Shown: positions 13,266-31,272, numbered from the stretch's first letter. The stretch: DNA of 64,000 nt from Opitutales bacterium (GCA_965197745.1 CBDANS010000007.1:1888001-1952000); one strand, 5' to 3'. Numbers and translations: made by a program. Notes: generated by a model not told the origin, from the sequence alone.

Positions 13266-14552
13266 TGGTCGTGACCACGAAAACTGGTCCACTTGAAAAG
13301 TTAGTCTGGTCCAACTAGAAAGGACACAGACAATGAAAGGCAAAAGATACACGACCGAAGAGAAAATACGGATGCTGCGCCAGGCGGACAAAGGGAAAAC
13401 GATCCTGGAAGCATGCCGCGAGAACAACATAAGCGAACAGACCTTCCACCGCTGGAAACGTGAGTTTGGGATGATTGATGTCAACCAGGCCAAGCGGATG
13501 AAGGAGCTCTTTGAAGGAGAACGCGCGGTTAAAACGGATGCTGGCGGACAAGATGCTGGGGATAGAGATCCTGCAGGAGACCCTCGAAAAAAAACTGTAA
13601 GCCCTGGGCACAAGCGGCAAGTGGCAGAGAGACTTGTGACTCGGGGCCAGTGTTCGATGCGAGCGGGGTGCCGGTACTTTCGGCTGCACCGTTCCACCTA
13701 TGCGTATAGGGCCAAGCATCCGGATGCCTGGCTAACGAAACTAAAAGCGGCAGTAAGGCGGTTATCACGGCAATACGCGAGGTGGGGCTATCCCAAGATC
13801 ACGAAGCTGTTGAAGGACGAAGGCTGGCAGGTGGGTAAACGTCTCGTGCAAGGTCTGCGACGTGAACTGGGTCTGGCGATCCCCCCACGCAAGCCAAGAC
13901 GCCGGCGCAGGGGTGTCTGCACCGGGCTACCGACAAAGGCCGAACATCCCGACCATGTTTGGACCTGGGATTTTATCCACGATAAGACGGTTCGCGGCGG
14001 CAGTCTAAAAATGCTGACCGTGCTCGATGAGTACACCCGCGAGTGCCGGGTGATCCATGTTGATCGCCATATCAATGCGGAAACGGTGCGCGGTATCATG
14101 CAAAAACTGCTCGACCGGCATGGGCCGCCAAAATATATTCGTAGCGACAACGGTTCCGAGTTTATTGAAAGCCAATTGAGAGCCTGGCTAACTGCGATGA
14201 AAATCAAAACCCTCTATATCGAACCAGCAAGCCCTTGGCAGAACGGATACATTGAATCGTTCCATGCCCGTTTTCGCGAGGAGTGTTTAAACCGTGAACA
14301 GTTATGGACTTTGACCGAAGCCCGCGTGGTCATCGAAGATTGGCGCTGGCTTTACAATCATGTCCGACCCCACCGCAGCCTCGGCAACATCACTCCACGG
14401 CACTTCACTGAAAACCTCAATACCGAAGGCTCGGGCTCCATTCGGGCTACGCCCTCATTGCGCCCAAGCCTTGACTTCCTCTACCAACTTAACTTCAACA
14501 TTAACCTCTCCAGACTAACTCTCCCGGTGGACCAGTTTGTGTAACCCGACCA
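13266..14552 (+). mobile_element. IS3-family (IS407-like) insertion sequence, copy 1 (1287 bp)
   Basis: TG...CA ends with imperfect IRs TGGTCGTGACCACGAAAACTGGTCCAC / TGGTCGGGTTACACAAACTGGTCCAC. DDE motifs WTWDF, SDNGSEF, NGYIESF. A8 slippery run at 13587-13594. Confidence 0.95.
13333..14544 (+). CDS. IS3 transposase, OrfA-OrfB fused by a +1 lesion (GA->TTT at 13510-13512)
   Basis: Comparison with copy 2 shows GAGCTC-GA-GAAG changed to GAGCTC-TTT-GAAG, which shifts into the OrfB frame about 25 codons early. Confidence 0.8.
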   Translation: MKGKRYTTEEKIRMLRQADKGKTILEACRENNISEQTFHRWKREFGMIDVNQAKRMKELFEGERAVKTDAGGQDAGDRDPAGDPRKKTVSPGHKRQVAERLVTRGQCSMRAGCRYFRLHRSTYAYRAKHPDAWLTKLKAAVRRLSRQYARWGYPKITKLLKDEGWQVGKRLVQGLRRELGLAIPPRKPRRRRRGVCTGLPTKAEHPDHVWTWDFIHDKTVRGGSLKMLTVLDEYTRECRVIHVDRHINAETVRGIMQKLLDRHGPPKYIRSDNGSEFIESQLRAWLTAMKIKTLYIEPASPWQNGYIESFHARFREECLNREQLWTLTEARVVIEDWRWLYNHVRPHRSLGNITPRHFTENLNTEGSGSIRATPSLRPSLDFLYQLNFNINLSRLTLPVDQFV

Positions 14553-16198: not shown

Positions 16199-16210
16199 AA
16201 GATGGTCGGG

Positions 16211-17189
16211 TTACACAAACTGGTCCACCGGGAGAGTTAGTCTGGAGAGGTTAATGTTGAAGTTAAGTTGGTAGAGGAAGTCAAGGCTTGGGCGCAATGA
16301 GGGCGTAGCCCGAATGGAGCCCGAGCCTTCGGTATTGAGGTTTTCAGTGAAGTGCCGTGGAGTGATGTTGCCGAGGCTGCGGTGGGGTCGGACATGATTG
16401 TAAAGCCAGCGCCAATCTTCGATGACCACGCGGGCTTCGGTCAAAGTCCATAACTGTTCACGGTTTAAACACTCCTCGCGAAAACGGGCATGGAACGATT
16501 CAATGTATCCGTTCTGCCAAGGGCTTGCTGGTTCGATATAGAGGGTTTTGATTTTCATCGCAGTTAGCCAGGCTCTCAATTGGCTTTCAATGAATGGCTT
16601 TGCATGTCGTCGCTTCGCTCCTCGGAACGGAACCGTTGTCGCTACGAATATATTTTGGCGGCCCATGCCGGTCGAGCAGTTTTTGCATGATACCGCGCAC
16701 CGTTTCCGCATTGATATGGCGATCAACATGGATCACCCGGCACTCGCGGGTGTACTCATCGAGCACGGTCAGCATTTTTAGACTGCCGCCGCGAACCGTC
16801 TTATCGTGGATAAAATCCCAGGTCCAAACATGGTCGGGATGTTCGGCCTTTGTCGGTAGCCCGGTGCAGACACCCCTGCGCCGGCGTCTTGGCTTGCGTG
16901 GGGGGATCGCCAGACCCAGTTCACGTCGCAGACCTTGCACGAGACGTTTACCCACCTGCCAGCCTTCGTCCTTCAACAGCTTCGTGATCTTGGGATAGCC
17001 CCACCTCGCGTATTGCCGTGATAACCGCCTTACTGCCGCTTTTAGTTTCGTTAGCCAGGCATCCGGATGCTTGGCCCTATACGCATAGGTGGAACGGTGC
17101 AGCCGAAAGTACCGGCACCCCGCTCGCATCGAACACTGGCCCCGAGTCACAAGTCTCTCTGCCACTTGCCGCTTGTGCCCAGGGCTTAC
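16211..17189 (-). pseudogene. IS3 orfB frameshifted by 34-nt cassette at DNGS-E-F
   Basis: Split into ORFs 16587-17165 and 16211-16729. Confidence 0.88.
16595..16628 (-). other. 34-nt GA-rich hairpin cassette replacing a Glu codon in orfB
   Basis: GTTCCGAGGAGCGAAGCGACGACATGCAAAGCCA is absent from copy 1, which has GAG here. Confidence 0.9.
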
Positions 17190-17452
17190 AGTTTTTTTTC
17201 GAGGGTCTCCTGCAGGATCTCTATCCCCAGCATCTTGTCCGCCAGCATCCGTTTTAACCGCGCGTTCTCCTTCTCGAGCTCCTTCATCCGCTTGGCCTGG
17301 TTGACATCAATCATCCCAAACTCACGTTTCCAGCGGTGGAAGGTCTGTTCGCTTATGTTGTTCTCGCGGCATGCTTCCAGGATCGTTTTCCCTTTGTCCG
17401 CCTGGCGCAGCATCCGTATTTTCTCTTCGGTCGTGTATCTTTTGCCTTTCAT
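17186..17452 (-). CDS. IS3 OrfA (HTH + leucine zipper)
   Basis: 88 aa ending at the A8 slippery site (17192-17199). Confidence 0.9.
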   Translation of the reverse strand: MKGKRYTTEEKIRMLRQADKGKTILEACRENNISEQTFHRWKREFGMIDVNQAKRMKELEKENARLKRMLADKMLGIEILQETLEKKL

Positions 17453-17510
17453 TGTCTGTGTCCTTTCTAGTTGGACCAGACTAACTTTTCAAGTGGACCA
17501 GTTTTCGTGG

Positions 17511-18158
17511 TCACGACCAAACGCTTACGCGTCTATTTTCAGATTGGACTAGTCCAAGTCTTTGACGGGTCTTTCTGATCGAGTCAAAGCTGCAATCCAT
17601 ATCCACCAAGATGTTAAAGAATTCAAAAAGGGCATTATCATCAAATTGGCAAAGTGGCGGAATCCCTCGGTGTATAGACATGACCCAGCCCCATATCATT
17701 ATATCTTTAATACGCGTTAGCTTATATTTTTTGTAGTTCAATTCCTCACCTAACCTTACAAAAAAATCTGTATCATCTTTTTTAATAGCACGATCCAATC
17801 GAGCTTTAATAATTGGGTGGTTTAATTTTTTCGTGACTCTGCAATATGCAAATACTAAAGAATCATGATAGTTATATTGTTTATTCGTTATACGTTTAAT
17901 GTTAACCGCTTTATTTATTTTTTGAGCAAGTGCATGTTCAACAGATTCACGTATAGTTTTATCATCTACGATATAAAAATCTTCTTTAAGCCTCTTATTT
18001 ATGGAGAATTCAGATGTATTGGGGAAGGGTGCTATTTCAAGAAGAATGCCCGTTAACAGTTCCCGCTCCACATGTGTTGGTCGATGTCGAGAAAGTATTT
18101 CTATCAATAATTGTGGAGATATGGGTTCTTTATTTTTTTTCTCTGCCATAGCTTTCAC
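17511..18158 (-). CDS. Hypothetical island protein, C-terminus abutting or truncated by IS copy 2
   Basis: Overlaps the integrase stop, and its own stop codon lies inside the IS end. Basic C-terminal 'SIRKTRQRLGL' may be DNA-binding. Confidence 0.65.
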   Translation of the reverse strand: MKAMAEKKNKEPISPQLLIEILSRHRPTHVERELLTGILLEIAPFPNTSEFSINKRLKEDFYIVDDKTIRESVEHALAQKINKAVNIKRITNKQYNYHDSLVFAYCRVTKKLNHPIIKARLDRAIKKDDTDFFVRLGEELNYKKYKLTRIKDIMIWGWVMSIHRGIPPLCQFDDNALFEFFNILVDMDCSFDSIRKTRQRLGLVQSENRRVSVWS

Positions 18159-19300
18159 ACAGTTATATCAGGCAATGAATCGAGAGCTTTCCGCTTCGCT
18201 TCATCTTCTATATGTGTATAATTCGCACTAATCATCTTGGATTCATGGCCAATGATATCCATCGCTACGGCTTCACTCACTCCCGCGTTTTTAAAAAGGC
18301 TAGTTGCTGTGTGTCGTAAACAATGGAAGCTGATCTCATTTACATTGCGCTTAGCAGATCGCCCCTTTCCGGTGGATTTTTTTGTTCTCGGCTTCGCGAG
18401 ACCCGATGCAACCAGTAACTCATAGAATTGGTTACTCAAAGTAGATATATTTATACAGCGTTTTAATGTTTCAAAAGCCCTGGGGAAAAGTGGCGCTTTC
18501 GGGTCATCACTTGAAGGCAGTAATTCAATCCATTCTTTTAATGGCTTAGCTAATGGGATAATCTGCCGCCGTCCTGTTTTATGAGCGGAAAGTCTTAGTT
18601 CATTTCGAATCAAATCAACATTATGCGAAGTGAGATTTGCCACATCACGAAGTCTTTGGCCGGTGTATAATCCCACCAAGATCATACCCCTCCATTCTTG
18701 ATCTGCCACTTCTAAAATTCTCTTCAATTCTGTTAATGTAAATGGCCTTCTTTCTATCATTTCCTCTCTTCTTTTAATAATTACAGTTTTGGCTGCCGGA
18801 TCATCAGCTATTAGCCCTTCGCGCCAAGCTGCTTTAAAGGCCACTCTGATAATCTTAAGCTTGCCGTTGGCTGTTACTGCAGTGCTCTTTTTAGCCGCAT
18901 TATCCCGAAAACTTGAAATATCAGCAGTAGTAATACTTGAGATATCTTGATCCGCCCTAGGTCCAATAAAATCTAGAAAATCGAGAACTGTCCCTTCATA
19001 CTTGGAAGTAGTAAGATCAGAGACTTCAACTTTTTTTGTTGCCAGCCATCTCTTAAAAAAATCACGTAGTGTTGAAGTCGGTAGAGATTTTCCGTTTATC
19101 TTTTCGTATATGTCCGATAAGACACGTCGGGCTTGTGCTTCTGTTAATTTTCGCCGGGCAGCATCTTCCCATTCGTCTGCAATAATTTGGGCATTCTTTC
19201 GGTTAACTTCTTTAGTGCTTCTTTTTGTTCTCCTACCATTCGGTAGGGTAAAGCATGCGTACCAATATTTACTTTTAGGATGTTGCCATACACTCGACAT
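18155..19300 (-). CDS. Tyrosine recombinase / phage-type integrase
   Basis: Catalytic R (YTGQR), HxxR (FHCLRH), GH and Y (NYTH), plus an N-terminal arm-binding-like domain. Confidence 0.95.
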   Translation of the reverse strand: MSSVWQHPKSKYWYACFTLPNGRRTKRSTKEVNRKNAQIIADEWEDAARRKLTEAQARRVLSDIYEKINGKSLPTSTLRDFFKRWLATKKVEVSDLTTSKYEGTVLDFLDFIGPRADQDISSITTADISSFRDNAAKKSTAVTANGKLKIIRVAFKAAWREGLIADDPAAKTVIIKRREEMIERRPFTLTELKRILEVADQEWRGMILVGLYTGQRLRDVANLTSHNVDLIRNELRLSAHKTGRRQIIPLAKPLKEWIELLPSSDDPKAPLFPRAFETLKRCINISTLSNQFYELLVASGLAKPRTKKSTGKGRSAKRNVNEISFHCLRHTATSLFKNAGVSEAVAMDIIGHESKMISANYTHIEDEAKRKALDSLPDITV

Positions 19301-19503: not shown

Positions 19504-20559
19504 TTAACTGTGTGTTCGAGACAGTACACGATTAATTTTTTTCGCTAAAAAAGGCCCTTTATAAATTAAGCCAGTGTATAATTGAATTAAGGATGCACCT
19601 GCATCTATCGTTTCTTGTGCCGAGAGAATATCATCTATCCCCCCTACCCCTATAATTGGCAGTCTCCCCTTTGTTTCGTGATTCACAAATTTAATTATTT
19701 CCAGTTTTTTCTCATGGACCGGTTTTCCGCTAAGCCCCCCTGCTTCCGTCACATCTTTAAAATTCCCGGAACGCTCGAGAGTAGTATTGGTCGCTATGAT
19801 CCCATCGATTTCGAATTCATTCGTAATTTGCAGGAGCGCATCGATCTGGCTGAAAGATAAATCAGGAGCAATTTTTAAGAGCATGGGTATACAATGCTGC
19901 CCGGTTTTCTGCGAGCGACTCAAATTGGCTTCACGTAATATTTTCAGGAGAGCTGATAGTGATTTTGTTTCCTGTAACTTGCGCAGGTCGGGAGTATTAG
20001 GACTACTGACATTGATCGTGAAGTAATCGGCGTAATCCGCGAGCAGATTAAAGGAGTTAAGGTAATCCGCCGGAGCATCTTCAAGCGGTGTCGCTAAAGA
20101 TTTTCCGATATTAATCCCCAGGGGTATTGCTTTTTTATGATGCGCACCTGCTGATCGCAATCGACGGGCAATCCTTTCAGCCCCATCATTGTTGAAACCT
20201 AGACGGTTAATGATCGCTTCCTCTTCAGGATAACGGAAAACACGCGGTCGAGGATTTCCAGGTTGTCTCTGATACGTAATGGTTCCGACTTCAACATGTC
20301 CAAATCCGAACGCACCCATAACCCGCCATATTTGAGCATTTTTATCCATACCTGCGGCTAAACCAATCAAATTAGGAAATTTTACTCCAAACAGATCGAT
20401 ATCCTCGTTCCCTGAGCTCCGATTGTATCGTTCCATCAAATGGCAGAGAAATGGGGCAAAGCTAAGCAATTTGAGCATGGAAATACTAAATTCATGGGCC
20501 TTTTCCGGTTCCCGGAGAAAGAGTATGGGCCGGATCAGTTTCTCATAAAATAACCCCAT
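19504..20559 (-). CDS. pyrD: Quinone-dependent dihydroorotate dehydrogenase
   Basis: 'GLAAGMDKN', 'INRLGFNNDG', 'NVSSPNTP', 'KIAPD', 'GGLSG'. Confidence 0.95.
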   Translation of the reverse strand: MGLFYEKLIRPILFLREPEKAHEFSISMLKLLSFAPFLCHLMERYNRSSGNEDIDLFGVKFPNLIGLAAGMDKNAQIWRVMGAFGFGHVEVGTITYQRQPGNPRPRVFRYPEEEAIINRLGFNNDGAERIARRLRSAGAHHKKAIPLGINIGKSLATPLEDAPADYLNSFNLLADYADYFTINVSSPNTPDLRKLQETKSLSALLKILREANLSRSQKTGQHCIPMLLKIAPDLSFSQIDALLQITNEFEIDGIIATNTTLERSGNFKDVTEAGGLSGKPVHEKKLEIIKFVNHETKGRLPIIGVGGIDDILSAQETIDAGASLIQLYTGLIYKGPFLAKKINRVLSRTHS

Positions 20560-28769: not shown

Positions 28770-29568
28770 ACAAGTATATATAGCTAATGACTATTAACTT
28801 TTTGTCAATGAATGAAGACACTTCCTGACCTCTACCATTCGTGAAGTTAAATTCAAAGTCTAATGAATACAAATTTTCATACTATAAATAACATTAGCCT
28901 CTTGCAAATATAAATAAATAACCTTTCATAGTCTATATCGTGACACGCATAAAACACCTTCTCAATGAGATTAATTATGAACTGGTACGTCGTTTGGCTG
29001 AAGGGGGAATGGGTGAGGTTTACGAGGCACGTCAAAACGGGATTGACCATTTTTCTAAGACCGTAGCCATTAAGTTAATTCGCGAAGAGTATTCCGCGAT
29101 AAAAGAGTTTCGTAGAAATTTTGTGGGTGAGGGCAAAACTGGTAGCAGATTTAATCCATACCAGTATCGTGCAAACCTACCATCTTGGGGAAATAGAGGG
29201 GCAGTATTTTATCGTAATGGAATATGTAAACGGCATCAATCTTGAAGAATTTCATTTTAAACATATGTCACTTCGCATTCCCATCCCTATCGATATAACC
29301 GTTTTTATTGTATCACGAGTATGCCGTGGCCTCGCCTATGCGCATACTAAATGCGATAAAGAGGGAAGACTTCTCAATATTGTCCATCGCGATGTCAACC
29401 CCAAGAACATCATGCTCGCCCATGAGGGGGATGTTAAGCTCACTGACTTCGGTATCGCGAAAGCCCTCGATCTCATGTATAACGTAGAAGGTGAAGTTAT
29501 TGCTGGAGTGACCCCCAAAAATGGTATCATTAACAGAGAGAGGTTATCGGGATAAACAGATAACCTCA

Positions 29569-29835
29569 ATGAAAAGAAAAAGATATACAACAGAACAGAT
29601 CATAGCAATACTGCGGCAGCCCGATACGGGCAAAACCGTGCAGGAAGTCTGCCACGGCAACAACCTAAGTGAACAGACCTTCTATCGCTGGGGCAAAAAG
29701 TATGGCAACTTGGAGCTGGCTGATGCGAAGCGATTTAAAGAGCTGGAAAAGGAGAATACGGAGCTGAAGAAGATGCTCGCTGATCAAATGCTCAAGCTTC
29801 GGGTGTTGGAGGAAACGCTCTCAAAAAAATGGTGA
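29569..29835 (+). CDS. IS3 OrfA
   Basis: MKRKRYTTEQI...LSKKW with an A7 slippery run at 29823-29829. Confidence 0.88.
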   Translation: MKRKRYTTEQIIAILRQPDTGKTVQEVCHGNNLSEQTFYRWGKKYGNLELADAKRFKELEKENTELKKMLADQMLKLRVLEETLSKKW

Positions 29836-30263
29836 GCCCAAAGCAGAAGAAGCGAGCAGTAAAAGATGCGGCTGAGAAGGGGCTGTGCTCGTTTTAGAGG
29901 GCTTGTGCTTATCTCAGCCTCAGTTGGTCAACGTACAGCTACCGACCCAAGCAGGCCAGTAAGAAGGCTCAGCAATTGGCCGAGCGGATTTTGACCTTGT
30001 CCTGGGAACATCCCCGTTACGGTTACCGGCGCATTCGTGCCTTGCTGGTGAAAGAAGGTTGGGCGGCAAGCAGGAAATTTGTACAGGCAGTGCGACGTTC
30101 TTCGGGCTTACAGGTAAAGCCCCCGAAAAAGCGTAGACACCGTCAGGGGATCTCTACTGGGCTCCCTACTAAAGCAACCGGTCGCAATCACGTCTGGTCC
30201 TGGGACTTTGTCCATGATCGTACAGACAATGGCGGTATGCTAAAGATGATGACCTTGATCGAT

Positions 30264-30308
30264 GTACCGAGGAGCTGAAAGCGACGACACTCAAGCGAAG
30301 CGAAGACA
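30264..30308 (+). other. 45-nt GA-rich hairpin cassette replacing the Glu codon of D-E-Y-T-R
   Basis: GTACCGAGGAGCTGAAAGCGACGACACTCAAGCGAAGCGAAGACA, with an in-frame TGA at 30276. Confidence 0.85.
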
Positions 30309-30434
30309 TATACGCGTAAATGTTTACGCATCCGGGTAGCTCGACAGCTCACCTCAACCGATGTTCTCTCGGTACTCAGCGAAACCATCGATGAAGAGGG
30401 AGTTCCTAGCTATATCCGCAGTGACAACGGCAGT

Positions 30435-30468
30435 GTTCCGAGGAGCGAAGCGACGACATGCGAAGCCA
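30435..30468 (+). other. 34-nt GA-rich hairpin cassette replacing the Glu codon of DNGS-E-F
   Basis: GTTCCGAGGAGCGAAGCGACGACATGCGAAGCCA, 33/34 identical to the cassette at 16595-16628. Confidence 0.9.
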
Positions 30469-31272
30469 TTCATTGCTCATCAGGTGCAGCAGTGGTTGTC
30501 CGACAAAAAGATCAAGGCGATATATATCGATCCGGGCAGTCCCTGGCAAAACGGTTTCATCGAGTCGTTTCACAACCGCTTACGCGATGAGTGTTTGAAC
30601 CGTGAAGTGTTGCTCAGCGTGGCTGAAGCGCAAGTGCTAATAGAACAATGGCGTCAGACCTATAACAATGAACATCCCCACAGTCGATTAGGCTTTAAAA
30701 GCCCACAAGAGTTTGTCACATTCCTTTCCGCTCTTGGCCGCGTTCGGGCTACGCCCTCACTGCGCCAAGATCTCTCATATACATCAATCCTAAAACCATT
30801 AACACCCGGTAGTTCTCTCACTTAAAATTTGATACGAAATACGGGGTCCGATCATTGCTGGTAAAGATGAATACCTATCCCCGGAACAGGTTCGACGAGA
30901 TGTAACAGATGCCCGGGCTGATATTTTTTCATGTGGTATCGTATTAGCGGAATTGCTCCTCGATAATAATATTTTTGAAGAAGATCATCCCAAGTTGACC
31001 CGCAAGAATATCCTCAAAATGCCAATACCGGATTTTACAAAATTGCGCTCTGATATAGATCCTAAACTGAACGAAATCCTTCATAAAACTTTTCAGCGGG
31101 ACCGCAAGAAACGATACCAAAGTGCCGCTGAATTACTCACCGCCCTGGAAGTTTACCTCTATAGTGATGGTTATGGACCTACCATTGAAAAATTAGCGGA
31201 TTATTTGCGTAATTTATTTTCCGATAAAAAACCCGAGGCCTTAACCCATCAGTCGACGGGACCTTCTTCTTG

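Follow-up and report, generated by a model that had tools for sequence, protein, structure and literature searches.

Short hairpin-bearing modules inserted at conserved codons of IS3-family transposase genes in an Opitutales genome

A stretch of 64,000 nucleotides from an Opitutales bacterium (GCA_965197745.1, CBDANS010000007.1:1888001-1952000) was analysed within its 4.45-Mb, seven-contig genome assembly. This stretch is referred to below as the window, and positions without a contig name are counted from its first nucleotide. The window contains two different IS3-family copies, isA and isB, whose orfB frames are interrupted at the same codon by the same short insert (cassette A), and an isA sibling in which that codon is intact. 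A second insert (cassette B) lies in isB, together with two empty sites that are filled in other copies. The features were as follows.

29504..30854, + strand: isB, an IS3-family copy with ends TGGAGTGACC...GATCA (TG...CA type), carrying cassettes A and B
30435..30468, + strand: cassette A, copy 1, 34 nt as first drawn, 0 mismatches, at the DNGS-E-F codon of isB orfB
30264..30308, + strand: cassette B, 45 nt with a leading G (element 44 nt), at LID-E-YTR of isB orfB
30548, + strand: empty site D4, the Gln codon of PWQNG in isB; a 43-44-nt cassette is present here in other copies and in contigs of all four sequencing runs
30590..30591, + strand: empty site C, the AG of LRD-E-CLN in isB; a 37-nt cassette C is present here in other copies and in one RNA-library contig
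16203..17519, - strand: isA, an IS3-family copy with ends TGGTCGTGACC...CCCGACCA, carrying cassette A only
16595..16628, - strand: cassette A, copy 2, 33/34 identical (G>A, 1 mismatch), at the same DNGS-E-F codon of isA orfB
13266..14552, + strand: empty isA sibling with an intact GAG codon at about 14158-14160

The isB copy is flanked by a 4-bp TTGC repeat (29500-29503 and 30855-30858). It interrupts an ORF (29300-29503 and 30859-31000) in which protein-kinase-like HRD...N and DFG motifs were noted by eye just 5' of the insertion point. A gene for a 381-aa tyrosine integrase (18155-19300, - strand; Phage_integrase, 62.7 bits) is separated by about 640 nt from the filled isA, on the side of its left end, and is followed by a dihydroorotate dehydrogenase gene (19504-20559). 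The 419-aa ORF adjoining the empty sibling encodes a BNR protein.

Both hosts were assigned to the IS3 family. The 403-aa product of the sibling scored 240.3 bits on NF033516 (IS3 family transposase; cut-off 160), with further matches to rve, rve_3 and HTH_Tnp_1. Two intact isA copies elsewhere in the genome (C7:1352653-1353939 and C7:406740-408026) have the IS3 architecture, with an orfA of 88 aa, an A8 slippery run and a -1 frame of 318 codons that includes DNGSEF. The filled isA of the window likewise has an orfA of 88 aa with an A8 slippery run. Host ends were TGG...CCA or TGG...TCA. With corrected ends, a 4-bp flanking repeat was seen by eye in only 3 of 14 isB copies, and mostly none was seen at isA copies. 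Carriers of the exact cassette A core fell into one isA cluster of 28, two isB groups of 16 and 10, and ten singletons. The isB copy of the window belongs to the group of 16, whose members are 98-100% identical.

A change in orfA from CTCGAGAAGG to CTCTTTGAAGG (+1 nt) was present in 25 of 38 isA-type copies and brings orfA into the orfB frame ahead of the A8 run. In two cassette-free copies with this change, a single ORF of 403 aa results, in which the leucine-zipper stretch is read out of frame. This ORF may represent a hard-wired but crippled OrfAB.

The initial annotation, made from the window alone, described the same 34-nt cassette at the same codon of two different IS3 elements, with flanks that differ up to the junction, and an uninterrupted sibling showing the empty site. 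Each of these points was confirmed. The two copies match at 33 of 34 positions in elements with distinct ends, and shuffling of the window (100 shuffles) gave an expectation of 0 matches to the 34-mer. In both orfBs the cassette is preceded by the D-N-G-S codons and the Glu codon is absent; the junctions read GGC AGT / cassette / TTC ATT in one host and GGT TCC / cassette / TTC ATT in the other. The sibling and the filled isA are identical over about 1,300 nt apart from three spots. These are the GAG codon versus the cassette, the base 3 nt downstream (TTT in the sibling versus TTC; hereafter the +3 base), and 1 nt in orfA, which is the +1 change and gives the sibling its single 403-aa ORF (13333-14544). 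Cassette A contains the mini-hairpin motif GCGAAGC twice, at a spacing of 15 nt, and cassette B follows the same plan over its first 24 nt or so.

Insertion sites were defined from alignments of 33 isB-type and 38 isA-type copies in the genome. Five sites were obtained, each with its own cassette subtype.

Site A: DNGS-E-F, target G/AG/TTC, element 33 nt
Site B: LID-E-YTR, target GATG/AA/TAT, element 44 nt
Site C: LRD-E-CLN, target GATG/AG/TGT, element 37 nt
Site D4: PW-Q-NG, target TGGC/AA/AAC, element 44 nt
Site R: just after the isA A8 frameshift run, in reverse orientation, target C/AG/T on the other strand, element 25 nt

All five elements start with T(A/T)CCGAG and end with CA. At all five sites the base preceding the element is G or C and the element has taken the place of AG or AA; this can equally be read as entry before an A with loss of the next base. 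A module thus enters between G or C and A, leaves the target unduplicated and in most cases removes the base that follows. The cassettes have no inverted ends, and the single G or C is the only feature common to the left flanks. By this rule, copy 1 of cassette A in the window is an element of 33 nt (30436-30468) that has replaced the AG of the Glu codon. The absence of a target duplication and the loss of target bases, both recorded at the outset, were evident in the copy alignments. The target consensus predicted at that stage, GAR-TWY, was partly right: GAR followed by T is close to what was found, and the rule itself is G/C ^ A-R, mostly then T.

Pairing of subtype and site was complete (140/140: A 73/73, B 33/33, C 15/15, D4 13/13, R 6/6). 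A genome search tolerant of mismatches with the 21-nt core of cassette A gave 66 matches; 65 of these lay at the DNGS^F site and represented six or more flank types. With the sibling protein as a tblastn query, 104 DNG sites were located, of which 71 had the core and 33 lacked it; these 33 include a few misplaced alignments or decayed cassettes. In an IS3 group of the DNGPEF type, which has the same G/AG/T at that codon, none of about 12 sites was filled. Occupancy among isB copies longer than 1 kb was AB in 25, ABC in 5, C only in 4, A only in 3, AC in 1 and none in 2.

The cassettes break the IS3 transposase by frameshift or by an added stop. Cassette A adds a net 31 nt, as originally noted, and the orfB frame closes after 203 codons in the filled isA versus 318 in intact copies. 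Cassette C adds 35 nt and also shifts the frame. Cassette B adds 42 nt in frame and contains a TGA, D4 adds 42 nt and contains no stop (by eye), and cassette R displaces orfB so that a -1 slip no longer reaches it. In the isB copy of the window, orfB is also interrupted close to its start by an in-frame TAG (29895-29897), which the 16-copy isB group carries as well. The sequence GTTTTAG is found at that spot in about 17 of 33 aligned isB-type copies; such copies are doubly inactivated, yet share 98-100% identity.

The cassette A core was found in 5 of 41 relatives sampled, among them members of a second genus of the family and of two further families. In relatives, the same cassettes occupied the same codons of the same IS families. 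In one genome of another family (G035, contig C150), a cassette-A-like core was seen in a tandem repeat of about 105 nt that is rich in GCGAAGC, rather than in an IS3 gene.

Sequencing runs were searched as Logan contigs at 88% likeness with short sides; such contigs drop rare forms. The exact left junction of cassette A was present in contigs of two runs (kind unrecorded) from two studies. A metatranscriptome run from a third study gave a 725-nt contig through cassette B and a 258-nt contig through cassette A, both ungapped, and one metatranscriptome contig carried cassette C at the site that is empty in the window. At site D4, a 43-letter insert was present in all four runs. In one run, contigs with empty alleles were seen, in which the flanks of A are separated only by AG and those of B only by A. 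These joints have sides of 24-28 letters and could originate in related copies or organisms. No joint skipping a cassette was seen in the contigs of two RNA runs. RNA libraries may contain DNA, and parts uncovered in the RNA runs are uninformative.

Cassette A is one subfamily of more than 250 micro-modules of 25-45 nt that are distributed genome-wide. The initial proposal of an ultra-small, non-autonomous inserted element is supported. Read 5' to 3', a module consists of T(A/T)CCGAG, a hairpin without fixed sequence, GAC(GAC)A, a tail and a final CA. A pattern search for all types returned 271 matches, 124 of them of types A to D4. The G+C-rich stems comprise 2-7 bp. A sixth, promiscuous subtype (D/R) consists of TACCGA and a hairpin followed by GACATCTTCCA, and is represented in the genome by 78 matches in 50 variants. 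Its closing stems have a mean of 3.3 pairs versus 0.59 in shuffles (maximum 1.18 in 1,000), and the hairpin closes to a loop of 3-5 nt in 33 of the 50 variants. Of the 151 Opitutales genomes sampled, 9 carried the D/R pattern; they belong to 6 of the 89 genera, and a reversed control pattern had 0 matches.

D/R modules occur in MITE arms, in heptamer tandem arrays (CCGCAAT/CCCTGAA-type) and, in reverse orientation, at IS3 site R. They thus occupy unrelated contexts in both orientations, a signal that the module family moves without homology, which is distinct from the signal of recombination among IS copies described below. The MITE family concerned has the terminal inverted repeat (TIR) TTGTCATTGCGAGG, with 166 TIR matches and 45 pairs spaced 48-464 nt. 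In one near-identical MITE pair, of 101 versus 128 nt, the difference is a single 27-nt module between GGC and A. This family seems to grow by nested insertion of micro-modules. Its members (C6:1103752, C7:1497253 and about 45 other loci) fall into size classes of about 100, 130-145, 215 and 240-250 nt, and their arms hold the GAGG-hairpin-GACG unit of cassette A.

One or two copies of a tRNA 3' half were also observed 3' of the tRNA-Asn and tRNA-Gln genes (C6:354800-356300 and C5:235900-237300), with some 60 nt, including a cassette-like unit, in place of the T-loop. Around these copies, the only Rfam hits were the tRNAs themselves and, below threshold, RtT (23.7 bits; gathering score 45).

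Recombination is plainly active among IS copies, as several observations show. The +3 base of the filled isA, which matches that of filled donors, was transferred together with the cassette. The orfA variant and the state of cassette A occur in all four combinations among near-identical copies. A chimera at C7:1673753 has isB as its left half and isA as its right half, joined at the cassette, and a chimera in a relative (L007 of G001) shows the reverse arrangement, with isA on the left and isB on the right. Run contigs likewise fork at the cassette into the flank of the other family (loose ends at 30475). Spread among IS copies looks partly recombinational. The +3 base, the four combinations, the chimeras and the strict pairing of subtype with codon point to recombination or gene conversion as a major route, contrary to the early argument from the divergent flanks.

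Between lineages, cassette A is far better conserved than its surroundings. Across 78 pairs of 13 lineages, which were chosen by the exact 21-nt core, it is 33-34/34 identical, and the 90-nt flanks have median identities of 59% and 64%. The flank shared across lineages is about 11 nt on one side and 7 nt on the other, which does not fit ordinary RecA exchange, so that cross-lineage transfer could be true site-specific insertion. A tree of 69 IS copies with cassettes masked was made using FastTree, and at least 4 (A), 4 (B), 5 (C) and 4 (D4) state changes were required, although recombination among copies makes any tree an approximate description. These gains or losses, at least 4-5 per cassette, agree with the early view that the carriers are not one IS clade with a shared ancestral insertion. 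Among 20 IS lineages, the 20-nt conservation of the four forward sites ranked at the 77th, 87th, 88th and 99th percentiles, which is suggestive only, because three of the four sites are neighbours. R cassettes were neither stripped nor counted in the conservation ranking and the tree.

An enzyme or parent element was sought in the genome (92% complete). No module-linked enzyme was found in it, and a search for a longer element or an enzyme flanked by the motif, as the initial annotation had suggested, returned none. The sole Y1/HUH (Y1_Tnp) gene is nearest to REP-associated tyrosine transposases (RAYTs; 66.6 bits on NF047646, cut-off 80) and looks truncated (199 aa versus 300-347 in its kin). 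No modules lie within 1.5 kb of it. The ortholog in relative G001 (93% identical) has one MITE TIR 84 nt upstream and no second. RAYT-like homologues were present in 8 of 9 module-bearing genomes versus 35 of 142 others, a comparison confounded by kinship and genome size. The usual loss of a base and the lack of a strand pattern argue against HUH enzymes, whose insertion is seamless and often strand-biased; a replication-strand bias was rejected on the one-contig chromosome of G001, along which the strands of 66 modules are intermixed. The case for the RAYT-like gene as the insertion enzyme is thus weak. No RVT_1 (reverse transcriptase) match was found in the genome. MITE TIRs beyond the close pairs are more than 11 kb apart, so no autonomous MITE copy was found. 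A guide-like pairing of cassette and flank was also discarded, as a 5x5 DNA-fold matrix on both strands had no diagonal.

A 429-aa tyrosine-integrase element (C7:1064900-1066400) is inserted in an isA-type orfB directly after ATC GAA TCG TT (the IESF codons), a sequence that resembles a tRNA T-loop. The same IS copy has cassette A about 110 nt upstream. This element was rejected as a parent, since it sits at a codon that is not a cassette site and shares no motif with the cassettes. The suggestion that the cassettes are scars of a larger IS-targeting element is unsupported for the same reasons.

Five other accounts of the cassettes were weighed. An assembly or adapter artefact has a negligible probability, given 73 copies of cassette A over seven contigs, the cassette in genomes of relatives, and cassettes or junctions in contigs of independent runs from three studies; the early concern that the junctions might be chimeric was thereby settled in favour of real DNA. 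It is highly improbable that recoding, by ribosomal bypass, frameshift or RNA excision, lets carrier copies make transposase. The amplified copies are indeed the carriers (28, 16 and 10), and the cassettes are within the length range of known bypass elements. However, the junctions have neither matching take-off and landing codons nor a slippery site, B contains a TGA and isB copies an extra TAG, and exact excision would still lose a conserved Glu or Gln codon. A, B and C are moreover kept in RNA-library contigs with no skipping joints in the RNA runs, Rfam gave 0 matches at E<=10 over 29400-31000, and intact isA copies are available. A host defence, in which a cellular system writes cassettes into the catalytic motifs of transposase genes, is very unlikely. 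The 71 of 104 filled IS3-type DNG sites and the position of filled sites in catalytic-core motifs would fit it, but the majority of modules are found not in transposase genes but in MITE arms, heptamer arrays or repeats linked to tRNAs, the broken ISs multiplied anyway, and no associated gene was found in the genome; nothing supported the transposase knock-out by the host that had been raised initially.

Equally improbable is one old insertion per site, inherited vertically in carriers and lost in empty lineages. Each subtype has one codon, and the same IS families hold the same cassettes in another genus, as vertical inheritance would have it. Against this, a non-coding and disruptive cassette is conserved far better than its flanks, and the tree requires at least 4-5 changes per cassette. 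The empty sibling, identical to filled copies elsewhere along its length, keeps the ancestral GAG and cannot have arisen by deletion, which could not restore that codon. Homing, in which a dedicated enzyme would read the conserved transposase-motif DNA and paste a subtype-specific cassette independently into each IS3 lineage, is unlikely, though less so than the preceding accounts. It would explain a cassette 33-34/34 identical in 13 lineages with flanks of about 60% identity that diverge right to the junction, a common flank of about 11 and 7 nt, which is less than ordinary homologous exchange needs, four cassettes within conserved catalytic-core motifs, and at least 4 state changes per cassette. 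Neither an enzyme nor a longer parent element was found in the genome, however, the cassettes did not pair with their own flanks on folding, the +3 base is transferred along with the cassette, no site is filled in the DNGPEF group, which has this G/AG/T too, and the chimeras and four-gamete patterns indicate active recombination. The 140/140 pairing and the unfilled DNGPEF group are what homology-guided copying predicts, and with the +3 base and the chimeras they favour recombination as a major route; for transfer between lineages, true site-specific insertion, originally proposed as independent in each element, is the main rival. It is doubtful, and a little more so than homing as such, that the IS3-resident subtypes are homing micro-elements of 33-44 nt that selectively sterilise IS3 transposases across lineages and genera. 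If they were, no smaller site-specific mobile element would be known from bacteria, and they would act as natural agents against transposons.

The explanation considered probable, with reservations, is that the modules are non-autonomous hairpin elements whose first insertion was made by an enzyme, followed by recombination and by mobilisation of dead IS copies in trans. A trans-acting enzyme would carry out the first insertion at each site, recognising the conserved flanks and the hairpin on single-stranded DNA. A RAYT-like Y1/HUH transposase is the best, though a weak, candidate for this enzyme. IS3-resident subtypes would then pass between IS copies and lineages mainly by short-patch recombination or gene conversion, which would explain both the binding of each subtype to one codon and the location of the sites in the most conserved IS3 DNA. 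The module multiplies along with the dead IS copy. Dead copies would be mobilised by the transposase of the few intact copies. Intact isA copies exist, so a supply of transposase to dead isA copies is possible; no intact isB copy was found in this genome, and trans-mobilisation of its 26 recent copies is an assumption.

The modules show how a genome can fill with dead yet multiplying insertion sequences, and an identical 34-nt patch can act as a crossover point between unrelated ISs. They also explain many 'frameshifted' IS3 transposase annotations in Opitutales genomes. Dozens of filled/empty pairs, a sharp junction rule, a covarying stem and single-codon subtypes in a well-understood enzyme make the system suitable material for study.

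The modules were compared with known classes of small elements, of which the cyanobacterial small dispersed repeats (SDRs), compared by description alone, and REP-like elements are the closest analogues. Identity with MITEs was rejected, since the cassettes have neither TIRs nor target-site duplications and the TTGTCATTGCGAGG MITEs are hosts of modules. Identity with GTAG- or CGTC-tagged REPs (by stem length and tag), IS200/IS605 miniatures, or bypass elements and introns was likewise rejected, because their defining features were absent.

REP palindromes carry a GTAG or CGTC tag and have stems of about 8-9 bp; a CGTC-tagged superfamily has A-T first pairs, a CCA-type tail and no known transposase (Di Nocera et al. 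2013, PMC3733652). RAYT transposases are associated with REP/REPIN elements (Bertels & Rainey 2011, PMC3116915). The modules resemble REP elements in being short hairpins with conserved unpaired flanks and a CCA-type tail, in high copy number and sometimes intragenic, and differ in their short, G+C-rich stems (2-7 bp), in the 5' flank T(A/T)CCGAG and in the sequence and side of the tag. Most module-bearing genomes also contain members of a RAYT-like gene family. The modules are, however, mostly intragenic or within other mobile elements, and the RAYT-like gene is not flanked by them.

Rickettsia palindromic elements (RPEs) are small palindromic selfish inserts within protein-coding genes, mostly tolerated in frame in host proteins. 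They are longer than the Opitutales modules, which mostly break the frame or add a stop and have transposase genes as hosts. RPEs are classed as CGTC-1/-4 members (PMC3733652). A full-text literature search found no description of such inserts in Verrucomicrobia. A Thiomargarita MITE paper was set aside, as it concerns ordinary MITEs.

Elements of the IS200/IS605 type depend on hairpin recognition, have no terminal inverted repeats, make no duplication and insert seamlessly beside a 4-5-nt target, with a preference for the lagging-strand template. The modules are similar in bearing a hairpin, lacking inverted repeats and duplications and lying beside a short target, and differ in having just one constant position (G or C) in the left flank, in the usual loss of a target base and in the lack of a strand pattern. 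In phage T4 gene 60 and the yeast mitochondrial byps, short structured mobile inserts of tens of nucleotides lie in coding sequence. In contrast, the modules have no take-off/landing pair, are kept in RNA-library contigs and are accompanied by extra stops, and intact host copies exist.

Few studies have dealt with mobile DNA of this size (25-45 nt) that lacks inverted repeats and duplications. In Nostoc punctiforme and relatives, the small dispersed repeats SDR4-6, which Elhai et al. are said to have described in 2008 (Genome Res 18:1484), are reportedly tens of bases long, form a hairpin, cause no duplication and encode no enzyme. They are also reported to lie within MITEs, heptamer tandem repeats and ISs, and otherwise identical repeats may be filled or empty at the site concerned. 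To our knowledge, no mechanism for the cyanobacterial repeats has been accepted since 2008. The Opitutales modules share the small size, the hairpin, the lack of a duplication and of an encoded enzyme, the nesting in MITE arms, heptamer arrays and IS3 copies and the occurrence of filled/empty pairs. They differ in coming from Verrucomicrobiota, in a sequence that is apparently unrelated (as judged by description only), in the usual loss of a base, and in having some subfamilies of 33-44 nt that are each bound to one IS3 codon. The Opitutales modules apparently constitute a second, independent system beside the small dispersed repeats of cyanobacteria.
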